Positions 2,657 to 47,680 of a stretch of DNA of 64,000 nucleotides are shown here, piece after piece. Below the pieces are notes generated by a model. The model was given only the letters and a program-made list of their open reading frames with translations, made no database searches and was not told the DNA's origin. The DNA is from Octopus sinensis (Eukaryota). Location: the NCBI RefSeq assembly GCF_006345805.1, contig NC_042999.1, positions 105,400,001 to 105,464,000 on the forward strand, written 5' to 3'. Made by a program: the position numbers and the translations under genes. The stretch's first letter is position 1; each line of letters opens with the position of its first letter.

Positions 2657-2958
2657 TAGGATATAAGTAAGGAATCAGACCTACATTTGTAAGTATATAT
2701 GTTAGTATGCATAGATGTGTTAATATAGAGTTACATATATGCCAATTTGCTTAGATATAAAAATGTTGGTTAGAAATGTTGTTTTTGTAAGAGAGGGTGA
2801 GTCGAGATGTTTAAATTCGATTTAACTCGATTTCACTGAACACGGTTATCGAGAAATACACACTATGCATATGTATATATATAATATATATATATTATAT
2901 TATATAATATATATATATATATTAATATATATTATATATATATATATATTATAATATA

Positions 2959-3010
<52 letters not shown>

Positions 3011-3271
3011 GTATTTATGTATCTATTTATATATATATACATACATACATATATATATATGTGTGTGTGTATATCTATATATGCATATTTATATATATAT
3101 ATTATATATATATATTATATATACGGGTGTGTGTGATTGTGTATAGAAGAATATATTATAAAAGGGATTCCGACCTGTCTGATTTTCACGTTTTATTTAC
3201 AATCTTATAATGATATAGGATAATATAATAATTTAAAATAAAATAATAGAATGTTAAATGTTCATTCTGAT

Positions 3272-3315
3272 TGAACTAGTACTTTCATGCATTAATTCTG
3301 CAATCTTCAGGTTCA
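3272..3315 (-). ncRNA. Type I minimal hammerhead ribozyme (left arm)
   Basis: Minus strand: UGAAC CUGAAGA UUGCAGAAUUAAUGCAU GAAA GUAC UA GUUCA. Intact core, helix I UGAAC/GUUCA. Confidence 0.8.
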
Positions 3316-3397
3316 TGTAGTAGTGGTGACGGTCATGCTTCACAATTTTTGACTTTCACAGTCAAAATTGTGAAGCATGACTGTCACCACTACTACA

Positions 3398-3442
3398 TGA
3401 ACCTGAAGATTGCAGAATTTAATGCATGAAAGTACTAGTTCA
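3398..3442 (+). ncRNA. Type I minimal hammerhead ribozyme (right arm)
   Basis: UGAAC CUGAAGA U-UGCA-GAAUUUAA-UGCA-U GAAA GUAC UA GUUCA. Helix III AGUACU is palindromic. Predicted cleavage after CUA (3437). Confidence 0.8.
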
Positions 3443-3556
3443 ATCAGAATGAACATTTAACATTCTATTATTTTATTTTATTCCATTATATTATCTTATA
3501 TCATTATAAGATTGTAAATAAAACGTGAAAATCAGACAAGGTCGGAATTACTTTTA

Positions 3557-3602
<46 letters not shown>

Positions 3603-3620
3603 TATATATATATATATATC

Positions 3621-3684
<64 letters not shown>

Positions 3685-3777
3685 TATATATTAGATTCAT
3701 TGATTCAGTTGAATTAGTTGACACAGCTTGGAGTAAGGTGAATAAAATGAATAAAATAATAAGATGTCAGGTACTAA

Positions 3778-10935: not shown

Positions 10936-11691
10936 ATTTTCACACTTCGGACAGTGGTAGAATGTGGCATATAATTCATATTTTACTCTTAGTGTTGTTG
11001 AGAAAAGTTTCTGTTTTCAAAGTTATTTCGTGTTCAAGTTGTATTTCGGTAATTTCAACCAATCAATGAGATGTATTAAGCTGAATAAAAGTACTGTCTT
11101 TGTTTGTCAACAACAACTATCGGCGGTGTATATTTCGTTTGTCACTGTTATTTATGACATTGTTCGTGCGTTTGTGCTGGTTTTAGCTTTAGGGTTTTAG
11201 GGTTAGGGCTAGGTTTCTTTGAGTTAGGGCTTTAGGGTTAGGGTTAGGGATGGGTTTTAGTGTTCGGGTTAGGGTCTTATGGTTAGAGTTATGGAAAAAG
11301 TGAAACATGAAATTGGAAGTCTTTCCGAAAATAGTAGCTGAAAAACAGGAAAAATAAGGTAAAAGCAGTAGAAATGCACGAACAATTATGGTGGTGCCAT
11401 GAAGTAAACATACTTCAGATACACTAGTTTATTCATACAAACGTAACTGAGATGAAATATGTCATAAATAACAATGACAAATGAAATATACACCGCCGGA
11501 GGGTGTTGTTGACAAACAACAGAAGTAATTTTATTCGGCTGAATACACGTCATTGATTGGTTGAAATTACCGAAATACGACAAATTTAACACGAAATAAC
11601 TTTGAAAATAGAAACTTTTCTCAACAACACTAAGAGTAAAATAAATATATTTTATATGACACATTCTACCAGTGTCCGAAGTCTGAAAGTG
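10935..11691. mobile_element. Non-autonomous long-TIR element (MITE-like) with internal degenerate TTAGGG array
   Basis: 10935-11160 is the reverse complement of 11458-11691, and 11161-11185 pairs with 11360-11384. Termini CA(T/C)TTTCA...TGAAAGTG. TTAGGG-like repeats at ~11183-11290. No clear TSD. Confidence 0.8.
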
Positions 11692-15583: not shown

Positions 15584-17392
15584 AAGAAAAGTCAAGGTAG
15601 AAAATACTAAAATAATTTTATGAAAAAGCTTTTGAGTACCGGTTTCAGCCTTTCAGACTTTTTCAACTGTAAGTATAGAAAACAATTAAATTTTGAAAAA
15701 ATTAAAAAGGATTTTTTTAAAGAATATTTGCATAGTATTCAAATACAATGGGCATTTTCCTTGTTTCTGCCTGTCTCTGTCTCTCTTGCTTACTCTTGTG
15801 GATTCGAGGTCGTTGTGAATTCTTGGCAGAGAAGGAGAAGAAGAAGAAGAAGAAGGAAGGGAAGAAAAAGAAGGGGGAGAAGAAGAAAAATGCGGGAGTG
15901 CGATGATAGTAGTAGGACGTTCAATGGTCAAGTTCCCTAAAAGTGACTTGTTGTGGCTGGTAGTAGTGATTGAATTCTTGAGACATCTCTGTTGAATGTA
16001 TTGTTTATAAAATTTGCGTTGGTGTTATTCTCAACGACAATAGTGGTGAAGTTAGGAAGGATGTGGCGGAGAGGAAGAACACGAAGAAGAAGGAGAAAGA
16101 TAAGGGAGAATAAGAAAGGAATGCATGGGGTATGATAGTAGTAGGATGTTAAATTGTCAAGTAACAACAAGTGGCTCTGTATGGATTATAGCAGTGATTG
16201 GGACTGTTTTTAAATGAATTCTTGGGAATCTCTTGAGTGTATCATTTTTAATATTTGCTTGTGTGTTTGTGTTATTCTAAGGCCGTGGTAGTTATGTCGT
16301 TTGTTGTAGATGCGTTCAAAACGGGTCTGTATTTTGTAATAAGCAGAATCTCTTTACCAATTCGTTGGCTACAGGTTGTATCGTCCCTGAATTGGCAGGG
16401 GAAAATTCTGAAGTTTGGATTTTTGTCGTTGGCGCAAATGTCAACGTGTTGGCCGAATGCAATTTTTCTGTTTTGGGAGATTTTGATGTCTGAGTTCGTG
16501 GATGTTGAGTTGAAGAGCACGTTGAAAGCATATGTCAATTAGTGAAGGTGGGTCGTTCCTGGTGATGAGTGTAACAACCAAAGGGGCTGATAAAGGAAGT
16601 GCAGTTGTCTTAATGGACACGGTATTCTCTATAACTCTAGTACTATCCATATTAGAAGTCACAACATATGAAAAAAGCCCAAAACTACAGTCAGCAGAAA
16701 ATAATGAGATACTGTTTTTTGTTTTGCCAATGTATTGCTCTTGACATCCAGATCAGGTTCGTGCGTATATCAGGTTCTTCGAAGCACATGTGAAGCTGCT
16801 TTTCACTGTGAAACGTTGTCCCTATTTGAAGGAGAACTCTGATCCCTCAATTAAATTGTCGCATATCCCACAGTGGGATCTTCCGCATTGTCTTACTGAT
16901 GGCTTCTGTGTTGTTGAGCGTATTCGGGCTTGTGTTAGGAGACTTTTCATAGATATGGGTTGTATCTTGCTTTTTACGATGGTGTGTGTTTGGAGGATTA
17001 AGTTAATTATGTGGTCCTTTTTTTAGCAGGGCAATGTTTTGAAGGAGACTTCATTGTATCGGAGACTTTATTGTTAAGAGGTTTGTGTGTGGATATGTAT
17101 GGTAAGGCTTTTGGCTGTAAATCCTTCTTTAATTTGGGATGTCTGAGTTCGTGGATGTTGAGTTGAAGGGCACGTTGTATGCATATGTCAATTAGTGAAG
17201 GTCGGTCGTTCCTGGTGATGAGTGTAACAACCAAAGGGGCTGATAAAGGAAGTGCAGTTGTCTTAATGCACACGGTATTCTCTATAACCCTAGTACTATC
17301 CATATTAGAAGTCACAACATATGAAAAAAGCCCAAAACTACAGTCAGCAGAAAATAATGAGAGACCTAAAATCCATAATAAACCTATACTTA
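15584..17392 (-). mobile_element. Rearranged, 5'-truncated Penelope-like element (Neptune-type)
   Basis: Minus strand: RT-thumb end (RNDRPSLIDIC..ALPYISTHKPLN), Cys linker CGRSHCGIC, GIY-YIG FTCASKNLIYA..SGCQEQYIGKTK (16709-16905), EN C-terminus KEILLITKYRPVLN (~16315), then a 3' UTR with an HHR. Plus strand: RT N-terminal motif KGADKGSAVVLM at ~16575 and ~17230. Confidence 0.9.
15628..15673 (-). ncRNA. Hammerhead-like motif with U3-A8 core in the PLE 3' terminus
   Basis: AG UUGAAAA AGUCU-GAA-AGGCU GAAA CCGG UA CU. Helix II is 5 bp, helix III ACCGGU is palindromic, helix I is short. Confidence 0.65.
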
Positions 17393-18181: not shown

Positions 18182-18762
18182 AGGCGGTGAGCTGCCAGAA
18201 TCGTTAGCACGCCACTCAAAATGCTTAGCGGTATTTCGTCTGCCGTTACGTACTGAGTTCAAATTCCGCGAGGTCGACTTTGCCTTTCATCTTCTCGGGG
18301 TCGATAAATTATGTACCAGTTACGCACTGGTGTCGTTTAATCGACTTAATCCGTTTGTCTGTCCTTGTTTGTCCCGTCTGTGTTTAGCCCCTTGTGGGTA
18401 GTAAAGAAATAAAAATAGGTATTTCGTCTGCCGCTACATTCTGAGTTCACATTCCCCCGAGGTCGACTTTGCCTTTCATCATCTCGGGCTCGATTAAATA
18501 AGTACCAGTTACGGACTGAGGTCGATATAATCGACTTAATCCGTTTGTCTGTCCTTGTTTGTCCCCTCTATGTTTAGTCCCTTGTGAGCAATAAAAAAAT
18601 AGGTATTTTGAATGCCGTTACGTTCTGTGGTCGACTTTGCTTTCATCCTTTCGGGGTCGATTAAATAAGTACCACTGAGGCAATGAGAGCGATGTAATCG
18701 ACTTATTCGCCTTGTTTGTCCACTCTATGTTTAATCTCCTGTGCAAAGTAAAGAAATAAATA
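18182..18762 (+). mobile_element. SINE family B: one head plus three tandem ~185-bp body units
   Basis: Head GGCGGTGAGCTGCCAGAATCGTTAGC. Units start GGTATTT at ~18230, ~18418 and ~18602, each with GTCGACTTTGCCTTTCATC..CGGGGTCGAT..AGTACCA. Confidence 0.85.
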
Positions 18763-42398: not shown

Positions 42399-42769
42399 TG
42401 TAAATATGGCTTCTTTTTTGCTTGGACGCTGGTTTTTAACTATAGGTTTCTTTTATATGAAAAGTAATTTTTAAAAGATTTTCTAAACGATGAACTTTAT
42501 TTTTACATTATATATTATATATTACTTATTTATATGCTTCCTATATATATATTTATATATTTTTATATACCTATATTACTTTATACTATATTACTTTATA
42601 TTACATTATACTATATTTATATTATATTTATATTAATTTATACTATATTTTTATGTATTTATTTTCTAGGTGTTGTAATGTTTTTTTAAAAAATATATAT
42701 TTTTTAATCGCTAAAGTATTAACATTAAGCGTGATGAACCAATAATTAACGCAACCAAACTTCCACATG

Positions 42770-42814
42770 TTACTTTTGACAATCTTTTTCCAAAGAGTGA
42801 AACCGGTAAAGTAA
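42770..42814 (+). ncRNA. Type I hammerhead-like motif with U3-A8 core
   Basis: UUACUU UUGACAA UCUUUUUCCAAAGAGU GAAA CCGG UA AAGUAA followed by AAUAAA. Helix I is 6 bp, helix III is ACCGGU. Confidence 0.7.
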
Positions 42815-42946
42815 ATAAACATCTTTTAAATGGCATTTTCAAAACTTCTTTCGTATATAATTCAACTATATATATATATATATAGTGGAATTATATACGA
42901 AAGAAGGTTTGAAAATGGCATTATATATGTATATTATATACTATAT

Positions 42947-43018
<72 letters not shown>

Positions 43019-43082
43019 GTGTGTGTATATATATATATATGTATATATATTATGTATATATATATATATGTATATATATGTG

Positions 43083-43145
<63 letters not shown>

Positions 43146-43200
43146 GTGTATATATATATGTGTATTATATATATATATATATATTATATATATATATATG

Positions 43201-43232
<32 letters not shown>

Positions 43233-43344
43233 ATATCTATATATATATATACTATATATATATAACAAGTGGAGTTGTGGGGTACCGCACGAGTGGAATT
43301 ATATACGAAAGAAGGTTTGAAGATGCAATTTAAAAGATGTTTAT

Positions 43345-43389
43345 TTACTTTACCGGTTTCACTCTTTGGAAAAACATTGTCAAAAGTAA
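43345..43389 (-). ncRNA. Inverted copy of the U3-A8 hammerhead-like motif
   Basis: Lies in 43292-43422, the reverse complement of 42737-42867. The two arms enclose ~420 bp of mostly TA microsatellite. Confidence 0.68.
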
Positions 43390-44199
43390 CATGTGGAAGT
43401 TTGGTTGCGTTAATTATTGGTTGTTGCAAATTGCTACATTACATATATATATATACAGTCTTTGGTAACAGGGGCATGTTAAGGACATAAAAAAGTTCAA
43501 CAAGTTCCTTAAAATATTGAGCAAAAAAGATTACATAAATAATCGTTCTGAAGGACATACTTAAGATAGTTTCCAGAAGGAATTGATATTGATACTGTAT
43601 CTGTATATTCAAACATGCACAGAATATTGGTTGACACACAGTACTATAATCCATATAAATATAAAGTATTTGGTGACAACAGTATGTTGAGAATATAAAA
43701 AAGTTTAACAAGCTCATTAAAATAATGGGCAGAAAAGATTAAAACAAATGTATTATACATCTCAGGGTAATTTCCAGGAGGAATTATTAAAAAAAGTTCA
43801 GTATACACATACAGAATATTATGAGTTCAAAAAGATTTACATTATTGTAGTGGTGAAGTTGTAACTAATCTGTCCGTTTTAGGAGAAATGTGGAATTGAA
43901 AAGAATGTACCCTTTTTTCTTTTTTTCTTTTTTTTGGCTCTCCTTCAAGCATCAATGATTTTGGGGTTAGGATGAGGTGACTATGTTTGTCTTTGTGTGT
44001 ATGTGTGTATGCATACATATATATGTGGTGTGAATAGATGTGTATGTGTGTGTGGGGGGGGGGGCTGTTTTTGATTGGTTCCAGGTGGTGTAAATAGATG
44101 TGTGTTATTTAAAGAATTTTTGGGGGTAGGATGGTGTGTGTATATGTGCGCCCGCCCGTGTGCGCGTCTACGCGTGTGTCGCGGCCATACATATATATG

Positions 44200-44377: not shown

Positions 44378-44565
44378 GTAGGTCCCGGGTTGATTCGGGG
44401 TTAACCACAGTAAATAAGGTACTCAATACATAGCAGAGAGTAAAATTAATTTATTATATAGAAGGAGCTTCTACAGGACTAGAACTGTTTCATTCAAGAG
44501 AAATCTTCAGGCTTCCTGAAGATTTCTCTTGAATGAAACAGTTCTAGTCCTGTAGAAGCTCCTTC

Positions 44566-44570
<5 letters not shown>
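44377..44570. mobile_element. Short PLE-terminus-like insert with a perfect 56-bp-arm hairpin and hammerhead cores
   Basis: 44456-44511 and 44515-44570 are perfect reverse complements with loop CTT. Each arm reads CUGAAGA UUUC-UCUU-GAAU GAAA CAGUUCUA GUC. The minus arm continues into AATAAA. Flanked by (TA)n. Confidence 0.8.
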
Positions 44571-44608
<38 letters not shown>

Positions 44609-44746
44609 GTATATATATATATATATATATATAGAATAAATATATGGTACAACGAAGTACCGATATTACTGGAAAGCATTACTATTTATATATATATACA
44701 TGTATATATATATATGTATATATATATATAATATATATATATATAT

Positions 44747-44880
44747 TAATAAAAGGATTTCCAACCTTGTCTGATTTTCACGTTTTATTTACAATCTTAT
44801 AATGATATATAAAATAATATAATAGAATAAAATAAAATAGTAGAATGTTAAATGTTCATTCTGATTGAACTAGTACTTTT
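44747..44880. repeat. Truncated second copy of the 3160-3560 family
   Basis: CTTGTCTGATTTTCACGTTTTATTTACAATCTTATAATGATAT...TGAACTAGTACTTT matches ~3160-3285. It starts in (TA)n and stops at the HHR GAAA box. Confidence 0.9.
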
Positions 44881-45769
44881 ATATGATCGGAATCTAATCA
44901 ATGATGGTACTCTTATCAATTATATGGTAAATATGTTTCATTAACATACTCTTAGTATACACTTCATTCTGTCCATGAATTATCTCTTGTAATAATGATT
45001 GCTTTGTATATCTCCAATTAAATCTACCCGCTTCAGTTTCTTCTCCTCAAAGCAGTTGCTCTGAGTCCTCGGCTTAACTTCCTTCTAAATGTACACAATT
45101 CGATATTAAGTCATACCAAAGAAAAATCTATGTTTAAAATAGATGTTATGTTTTTCATCGAACTCATTCTAATCAATTGCTCTCAAAAACATTGATTCAT
45201 AAGCAAGTAATATATTTATTGTTTAAATAAGTAATTCAGATACTCAGACATAGATATCTTTACTCAGTTACCTGATTTAGGAGAAAGTAAAAAAAAAAAA
45301 AGTTTAGAGGCTTGGCAATTCCTCTTGTGCATAATACAATCAGCAATATGAACAAAGAACCTAACTGATAGGACCAATCATAGAACAGAAAGTAACACGA
45401 ACTTTTTATGTAGATAACTTTTCTAACATATTTACATTTCTTGCAAATTTTCAAAACTGCAATCAAATGCAGGTTGGGTTGTAAAGTTACTATTCTCGAA
45501 GAGCTGAAGACAAGTTGCAGATAATTACAATGTAATAGATTTAAAATTAAATTCTTGTTATTTAAATTAGATTTACTTTGTTATTGATTCATGCAATGAA
45601 TTAGTGCTGTCGAATCTTTCGAATGGAAAACTATGCGGACTTTATAATACTCGTTACTATTGCTACGGTTTTAGAATAACCTTATTGTGTAATACTATAT
45701 GCAATTCTTTACATATAAATACATATATTTATGTATTATCTATCCATCTATCTATCTAAATATCTATAT

Positions 45770-46439: not shown

Positions 46440-47680
46440 TGAAAATGTCAAGAAGGAGAGTAATATTAATGATTTTAATTTTTCATCATTTAATTTATTC
46501 GTTAAAACTGTCTATAACTGATCATGGTTAACTTGTCATATATGTGGGTTGCTTATGCGTGTACGTATGTACGTTTGATTAAAACATTCCATCATAATTA
46601 TTTGATTAGAATGGCAGTGTTGGATAAAGCTCTTAATGCTGTTGAAAAATTCTTTAAAACGCAGTACGGATGTTTGAGGTGGCCTACACAGCCTAACTAC
46701 TATGAGGTCATTGGTTTTGTTGTGCACGGTGACTGATTCACAATAGCCATTGGAGAACGTCATATTTCCATTTGCCGAAAAGGAATCACGCATGAAAATA
46801 GCAGCTCCACCCTTCCTTCTGTGGCCTCGATCCACGCAGATGTTGGTGAAATTCATCTCTTTCACTTCGGCTTCCAAGTGGGTGTTGTCAAGGTCGGTCT
46901 CGGTAAGAATGAAGAAAGGGATGTGATGTGGATGTTTACCAACCCAGTCCTCAATGAATTGGATCTTCCATATTTGTGCATTGGTGGAAGAACTGACACC
47001 CTGTGCATTGTGTACAAATGTTGGGGCAAGCATAGTGACGGGTTTTGACTGTTGCAGGGATCATTTTTTCTGAATGTGTGTTAGTGACAGCAATGTTGGT
47101 GTTGTAGCACTGGGGTAATAACATAGGATGCTACAGAGCTAAAAAAAAGAATTTTCCTACTCAGGGAGCAGTTTTTGACTGGAGGTGCGGTTTCTTTGTT
47201 GGGTGGTGTTGTCTTCCCTCTTTTGCTGTTGGTTTTGTTGTTGTTGTTGTTGTTGTTGTTTGTTTGTTTTTGTGTCTTCACGAAAAGACTAGGCCATCAT
47301 TTCTGGGGCAGGAAGTGTCTTTACTGTGGTTTATGCGTTGGCTTGGAGCCCCATTTCTGTTAGTGCGTCGGGTCCCTGGAAGACGAGTGAAGGGATTACT
47401 CACACAACAGACATGGTTTCTCGCTTTCAGAATACCGGTAGATTCTGGGATTCCGTGTTATGCGTGTTTTAACGGTCAATTTACTATTTGGTGGTGTTGA
47501 TGTTGATGTTATTGTAGGACGGGGGCTATGGCTTGCAGTGTTTGTCTGGATTGTACGTCTAGTGCAATGTAGAAGTGTGAGGATGCAGTCATTACGTGTG
47601 CAGAGCCTGTCACGTAGTGCACAACGGCATATTTTGGGGTTTCTTTTAGTGTCGTGAGACACACATTCTGCTTCATAATT
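46440..47680 (-). mobile_element. CR1-group LINE 5' part: Cys/His ORF1 remnant plus APE endonuclease
   Basis: ORF 46536-47033: HNAQG, LTETDL (TETWL), VDRGHRRKGGAAIF (DR..GGGV), LCRPP (YRPP), ECFN (GDFN). Upstream PKICRCALRDRLCTRNDC..LH is CCCH-like. Confidence 0.8.

Follow-up and report, generated by a model that had tools for sequence, protein, structure and literature searches.

EN+ Penelope-like elements (PLEs) carry an optional tail of 30–40 bp at one end only (PMC3846280; PMC8557442; PMC2377424), and the accessible text of one of these studies names the origin of this one-sided tail and of PLE inverted repeats as open (PMC8557442). In Schistosoma, pairs of hammerheads on opposite strands and 100–700 bp apart have already been noted, for which the accessible results and discussion give no mechanism (PMC4209133). 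An in vitro study of an anole retroelement describes, in its accessible text, that both target strands are cut and extended, that two reverse transcriptase (RT) start sites bound the tail and that uncut RNA can serve as template with the hammerhead being dispensable; the steps after priming are left unvalidated there (PMC11167929). Inverted pseudo-LTRs, one-sided tails and opposite-strand hammerhead pairs are known already, and the octopus palindrome analysed here is an ordinary member of this insertion class and probably inert. The present palindrome counts and a two-ended mechanism were not found in print, and literature searches outside subscription papers found no twin priming for Penelope elements.

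The palindrome lies in a 64-kb window, by which we mean the whole stretch of octopus DNA that was analysed (Table 1). The first-pass annotation had reported a fold-back of about 400 bp with a 5-nt loop, (TA)n on both sides and a third partial arm 41 kb away. All of these are present, but the fold-back is larger than noted and spans 3124–3562 (~440 bp). Aligned with each other, the left and right arms show 186 identities, four mismatches and seven gap columns (blastn E 1e-175). The left arm extends to 3124 through a 29-nt tail that is absent from the right arm, which makes the palindrome an asymmetric unit of about 440 bp. Two of the loop bases (3358–3359) are the element's own +1 and +2 (AC of ACAGTC), and the TTC ahead of them was probably templated by the nearby TTCAC, of which it would be a short copy. 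The third arm has (TA)n on one side only and holds the 3′ half of the hammerhead only. Contigs from four public runs cover the arms and none spans the locus, which is uninformative either way as the unitigs are short and the locus is repetitive. An assembly or read chimera, with which the missing span would agree, is a most improbable origin of the palindrome: its arms differ by the four substitutions, the seven gap columns and the 29-nt tail, centres lie at the promoter-defined base in 48 loci of its own family (family 1) and in 496 loci of a second one (family 2), and an independent run contains a fold-back centre of the same family (the X19 loose end).

Table 1. Positions in the window of the two palindromes, their parts and a further family-1 copy.
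Feature	Position	Strand	Basis
(TA)n-rich left flank, target microsatellite	2869..3123	.	sequence, repeat scan
Penelope 'tail', 29 nt between two preferred 3′ ends; left arm only	3124..3152	-	
Left arm, tailed: element +3 to far 3′ end (site 2)	3124..3354	-	
Putative minimal type I hammerhead-like motif, left arm; core 3310-3283; predicted cut after CUA	3272..3315	-	
Junction TTCAC, 5 nt	3355..3359	.	set beside 47 other centres
Right arm, tail-less: likely start +1 (ACAGTC) to near 3′ end, site 1 TTATTAATAT	3358..3562	+	
Putative minimal type I hammerhead-like motif, right arm; predicted cut after 3437	3398..3442	+	
(TA)n right flank	3560..3691	.	repeat scan
Family-2 Penelope palindrome: tailed left arm, tail-less right arm	44378..44569	.	
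Separate 5′-truncated tail-less single copy, family 1	44741..44882	-	alignment

The window also contains repeats of other kinds. An element at 42737–43422 with 131-bp inverted arms (96%) and a 424-bp (TA)n-rich centre looks MITE-type, and an inverted-repeat element at 11038–11581 has 128-bp arms (86%) and internal TTAGGG-like repeats at ~11180–11290. An abundant SINE-like repeat is present twice in tandem, in copies of 190 bp, at 18230–18601. On the minus strand, a 184-aa frame at 1795–2349 has what we take to be a likeness to mariner/Tc1 transposases, and a 174-aa frame at 46536–47060 presumably resembles a fragment of a LINE AP-endonuclease.

Each arm holds a core running from CTGAAGA to GAAA (3403–3431 on the plus strand in the right arm) within a motif made up of stem I TGAAC/GTTCA (5 bp), CTGAAGA, a 4-bp stem II, GAAA and the palindromic AGTACT of stem III. 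PLE hammerhead variants are reportedly the subject of work by Lunse from 2017. With its CUGANGA and GAAA boxes, a UH cut site and stems I and II, the motif would qualify as a minimal type I hammerhead, and its AGUACU is predicted to form an intermolecular duplex of 6 bp (-6.8 kcal/mol), as expected of a dimer-capable stem III. The hammerheads had been called canonical and intact. The conserved boxes and stems I–III bear this out in part, but in both families stem II has U·U at its base in place of the G10.1–C11.1 pair, and no Rfam match at the gathering threshold was found within the 64-kb window. In PLE hammerheads the G10.1–C11.1 pair is highly conserved and an extra base follows A9, according to the accessible text of PMC4209133. 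The expected competition between hairpin and ribozyme fold is reproduced by structure prediction, in which the pairing probability of stem I is 0.23 in one arm vs 0.0 in the full palindrome; read-through palindrome RNA is predicted to form a hairpin of -352 kcal/mol at 25 °C, which would shut the ribozyme off. If the locus is transcribed, such a hairpin might also act as a substrate of ADAR or Dicer, as the first-pass annotation suggested.

A search with the arm in the 2.7-Gb host genome gave 1413 candidates, of which 40 were scored, and six long copies were extended for coding content. The arms match the leader of an element with RT and GIY-YIG domains, confirming the link to PLEs made in the first-pass annotation. 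Long copies show RVT_1 at E 4e-4, which is below the Pfam cut-off, with the core YLDD visible, and C-terminal to it in one ORF GIY-YIG at E 6.7e-6, above the Pfam cut-off; the long copies examined carry stops or frameshifts. The parent element is 4.3 kb long and forms tandems of about 4.27 kb. Its RT and GIY-YIG domains, pseudo-LTR partial tandems and one-sided tail place it among EN+ PLEs. The linker ahead of GIY-YIG, C-x4-C-x2-C, fits the CX2-5CxxC of the Neptune clade, a motif that the accessible text of PMC8557442 also gives for Nematis, and copies are flanked by (TA)n, as in Neptune-type targeting. Another GIY-YIG fragment, partly duplicated, lies in the window on the minus strand at 16705–16998 and 16441–16752 and is 35% identical to the family-1 protein (E 5.5e-11).

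One long copy (L049) has the layout inverted copy, direct pseudo-LTR, ORF, pseudo-LTR. Its arm starts between T and ACAGTC, 30 bases downstream of TATTTAA, with CCAAT boxes farther upstream; the ATG is at +265, the arm ends before it and the tail lies just upstream of it. Family-1 copies end preferentially at one of two 3′ positions that are 29 bases apart. Site 1 is TTATTAATAT, site 2 is CACACCC and precedes an AT repeat of ~12 bases in the element, and the Penelope 'tail' is the stretch from one site to the other. Given a TATA-proximal start and two preferred 3′ ends, the arm is likely the 5′ leader (5′ UTR) of the element RNA, reaching from its start site to the RT start sites.

An exact-pattern search of the genome found 48 head-to-head pairs folded at the family-1 point, against 0 with the reversed pattern as control. 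The centre reads GAC[A/T]GTC in 31 of them, which is the centre predicted by end-to-end pairing of cDNAs; the remaining 17 centres are each different, that of the locus at 3124–3562 among them. Single-arm copies start at the same base as the palindrome centres. Among the first 100 of 538 listed matches to the start-site pattern, which is blind to later starts and undercounts standard palindromes, 19 start at +1 to +3 and one in the ~15 bases upstream. Judged from these sequences, the fixed fold point is likely the RNA 5′ end and not the mark of a mobile palindrome, because the RNA likely starts there, as indicated by a TATA at -30/-29 in the two families, by the single-arm starts and by an extra G in family 2. 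A reverse transcriptase that copies a cap yields an extra G. In family 1, the base before +1 at (TA)n-flanked non-T junctions is G in 11, C in 16 and A in two cases; since the G is not specific here, the cap evidence comes from family 2. The extra C seen before +1 in many family-1 single arms ((TA)n-C-ACAGTC, 16 cases) is perhaps due to dinucleotide slippage at the junction.

The first-pass annotation had named an identical loop position in many copies as what would support a palindrome mobile in its own right. The position is indeed fixed in the 48 pairs, but a fixed fold point need not imply a mobile palindrome. That a non-coding unit moves whole, copied in trans by Penelope protein, would account for the fixed centre in 31 of the 48 and for 238 identical centres in family 2, and copying from the tailed end would also preserve one tail. 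We nevertheless consider it improbable: 17 of the 48 centres are all different, the one-tail rule described below is equally true of long pairs with all-different fold points, single arms begin at the same base, and the haplotypes of 23 out of 36 fully typed arms also occur among 23 copies that have the promoter. In addition, the palindrome has no TATA or CCAAT promoter and its RNA is predicted to collapse into the hairpin described above. Varied centres and shared haplotypes are also unlike a MITE-like invariant unit with its own lineage, although a minor lineage of palindromes may exist. We thus ascribe the fixity of the fold point to the likely 5′ end of the RNA.

Tails were typed by alignment in the 48 palindromes, of which seven with a truncated arm (L045 included) were set aside. 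Exactly one tail is found in 37 of the 41 complete palindromes, two in three and none in one (P 5e-8 for the one-tail excess vs independent 50:50 ends). Longer or uneven inverted pairs, 17 of which were picked from earlier matches, have one tail in 16 cases; among these, the arm reaching farther 5′ is tailed in ten and tail-less in five, and one pair is even. Read from the tailed side, the centre base of one-tail loci with the standard centre is T in 11 and A in 11, and six close copies (L042–L044, L069, L078 and L079) are split 3:3.

These counts, together with the 238 zero-loop sites of family 2, disfavour a snap-back origin, which the first-pass annotation had put forward. In a version with further steps, a single cDNA would snap back at the RNA 5′ end and the tail and centre pattern would arise later, through a second RNA-templated patch, asymmetric endonuclease trimming of palindromic DNA or flipping between the arms. 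A second arm copied from a tail-less first arm gains no tail, and so the five pairs with a tailed shorter and a tail-less longer arm do not fit; an arm copied from an arm always leaves T at the centre as read from the tailed side, against the 11:11 and 3:3 observed; and at several centres both arms are preserved in full up to +1. Later correction on a large scale is unlikely, since the centres of family 1 are still imperfect. Snap-back would, on the other hand, explain why the arms of one locus are closest to each other (2.0% divergence vs 4.0% between loci; 163 columns, 40 loci), why the two arms of many long pairs (L003, L116, L119, L120) stop no more than ~10 nt apart and why two tail-less/tail-less palindromes, L081 and L083, have flanks mirrored 14–20 bases past (TA)n, and the private variants common to both arms allow conversion. 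In their accessible text, PMC8557442 ascribes the tail to EN-mediated resolution and PMC3846280 reads junction palindromes as self-priming. Taken together, snap-back with a second step or flipping is the main rival to twin priming, although an unlikely one; L081 and L083 themselves fit rare true snap-back or conversion products.

The similarity of arms within a locus also fits one RNA template for both primers of a twin priming event. Family variants are present in both arms 65 times and in one arm 25 times, where random pairing gives 20.7 (maximum 37 in 2000 shuffles) for both arms, and one RNA feeding both primers would explain the near-absence of double use of either site. The 25 one-arm cases cluster in L070 and L076 and suggest that these two loci used two templates. 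Variants private to a locus occur in both arms in 15 and in one arm in 71 cases, and those in both arms could be due to inter-arm conversion.

The second palindrome of the window, with its centre CTT at 44512–44514 and hammerhead-like cores at 44516–44538 (+) and 44510–44488 (-), belongs to family 2, which has no real DNA similarity to family 1 and provides an independent replicate with 1773 matches to the start motif and 496 palindromes. The family-2 centre lies between T and AGCTTC, 29 bases downstream of TATAAAT. From 38 distinct junction sites, two continuing upstream, ten with inverted bits and one local duplicate were removed; at the 25 clean (TA)n junctions left, +1 is preceded by G in 17 cases, by T in six and by C in two, where the element has T. 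The loop-less centre GGAAGCTTCC is present at the 238 sites mentioned, 21 of them among the first 50 of 496 listed. In both families, the commonest centre matches the pairing of identical cDNA 3′ ends, which is possible over 4 bp with a T·T mismatch for ACTGT and over 4 bp for AGCT. The single tail recurs in 24 of 24 palindromes (two pairs being possibly local duplicates), in all 17 long pairs with both ends found, from 20 fetched, and in 15 of 15 zero-loop copies (56/56 overall). The complete arm of the 24 palindromes is the tailed one in 13, the tail-less one in eight, both in two and other in one.

Stem I of the family-2 hammerhead begins at the first base of the RNA (AGCUUC/GAAGCU) and is combined with a 4-bp stem III and a GUA cut site, so that this hammerhead may fold as a monomer. 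In the long family-2 copies (L160–L179), several kb of upstream sequence are mostly of low complexity and devoid of ORFs, and these copies are possibly a large non-autonomous or flank-capturing branch. Another family-2 copy (L195) lies below an RT + GIY-YIG region that is about 40% identical to family 1. A wholly non-coding family 2 would agree with most of the long copies examined but sits less well with this one.

Self-cleavage of the hammerhead might in principle set both the RNA end and the fold point. In family 2, one palindrome is folded next to the predicted cut (G000:C5:98103535), a few copies start at it among the first 100 of 321 matches, and the end of one copy (L196:3689–3907) coincides with the predicted GUA cut and is followed by (T5A)n. 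Occasional cleavage by the family-2 ribozyme is weakly suggested by these cases. In family 1, however, the centre lies ~80 nt upstream of the predicted cut, the genome pattern search found 0 fold-backs at the cut, and none of the 19 variants listed is a (TA)n-joined start there, which largely refutes the cut as the family-1 fold point. Moreover, the core reads CCGAAGA, a change that we take to be damaging to a hammerhead, in 25 of the 88 arms typed, and this subfamily still spread. We accordingly give self-cleavage very little credence as the origin of the fold point. The missing folds and starts at the cut site and the spread of CCGAAGA arms thus point to uncut RNA as the template in vivo, and on these sequence grounds the ribozymes are best regarded as passengers in the insertion.

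We propose that the palindrome is probably a head-to-head pair of Penelope leaders from one two-ended ('twin') priming event. A TATA promoter in the upstream pseudo-LTR would give rise to a capped RNA starting ACAGUC, and the GIY-YIG domain would nick both strands of the (TA)n target, with which the anole in vitro work agrees. Within the 5′ leader, the two strands would then prime RT at opposite ends of the tail, possibly via AU repeats of the RNA that are able to pair with (TA)n. Both cDNAs would extend for ~200–230 nt, through the uncut hammerhead, to the RNA 5′ end, where their identical ACTGT 3′ ends would pair in the manner given above, followed by fill-in. In the product, the centre is fixed, a tailed arm faces a tail-less one and there is no promoter, for want of which it is predicted to be dead on arrival. 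Against twin priming, four of the 41 palindromes break the one-tail rule; later inter-arm inversion or conversion could also have randomised the centres, and any target duplication would be masked within (TA)n.

Whether the reaction is general is a more tentative matter, and we put it at somewhat less than an even chance that PLEs integrate by programmed twin priming, in which the tail would be the spacer between strand-dedicated priming sites and the 5′ end (ACAGU, AGCU) would be selected to be self-complementary. If this is true, inverted pseudo-LTRs and the one-sided tail are the normal footprint of integration group-wide, and the mini-palindromes are the smallest product of the reaction. 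With hundreds of such uniform products of minimal size, the two families define clear-cut rules in vivo, namely a single tail, centres of random orientation, joins with zero loop and a fold at the cap, all of which are directly testable in the existing in vitro system.

As far as the sources are accessible, the octopus insertions share with published EN+ PLEs the head-to-head inverted 5′ copy known as the inverted pseudo-LTR, the tail at one end, (TA)n targets, partial tandems and an RT with C-terminal GIY-YIG (PMC3846280; PMC8557442; PMC2377424). Unlike these, the octopus insert consists of the 5′ leader only and is folded at the likely start in hundreds of copies, and the published readings, antisense self-priming and EN resolution, misfit the octopus centre statistics. 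The Penelope promoter of D. virilis is described as internal and TATA-less (PMC2377424), whereas that of octopus looks upstream and TATA-type. Hammerhead pairs of PLE remnants are likewise of minimal type I with a palindromic stem III, but have the conserved G10.1–C11.1 where both octopus families have U·U (PMC4209133). Non-LTR retrozymes, which according to the accessible text descend from PLE pseudo-LTRs, are also small hammerhead repeats that are non-coding; they form head-to-tail tandems, however, whereas the octopus unit is arranged head-to-head and has one sense ribozyme on each strand (10.64898/2026.07.22.740005), and no tandem of the palindrome unit was found within the 64-kb window.

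The closest parallels for the proposed reaction come from two experimental systems. The anole Poseidon element PAc resembles the octopus elements in its two RT starts bounding the tail near the ORF start, in the cutting and extension of both target strands and in the uncut RNA template (PMC11167929). Its start site is not homologous to the cut DNA, whereas both octopus sites carry AU repeats through which pairing with (TA)n would be possible, and the accessible text of the PAc work links the two strands neither to the two sites nor to palindromes. In L1 twin priming, according to the accessible text, a single RNA is primed from both nicks and the cDNAs join by microcomplementarity, as we propose here, and the second primer acts at chance internal sites, which leads to inversion (10.1101/2024.08.27.596794). 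In octopus, by contrast, the priming sites would be fixed and about 30–60 nt apart, both cDNAs would reach the RNA end, and the inverted duplication would be a routine product.
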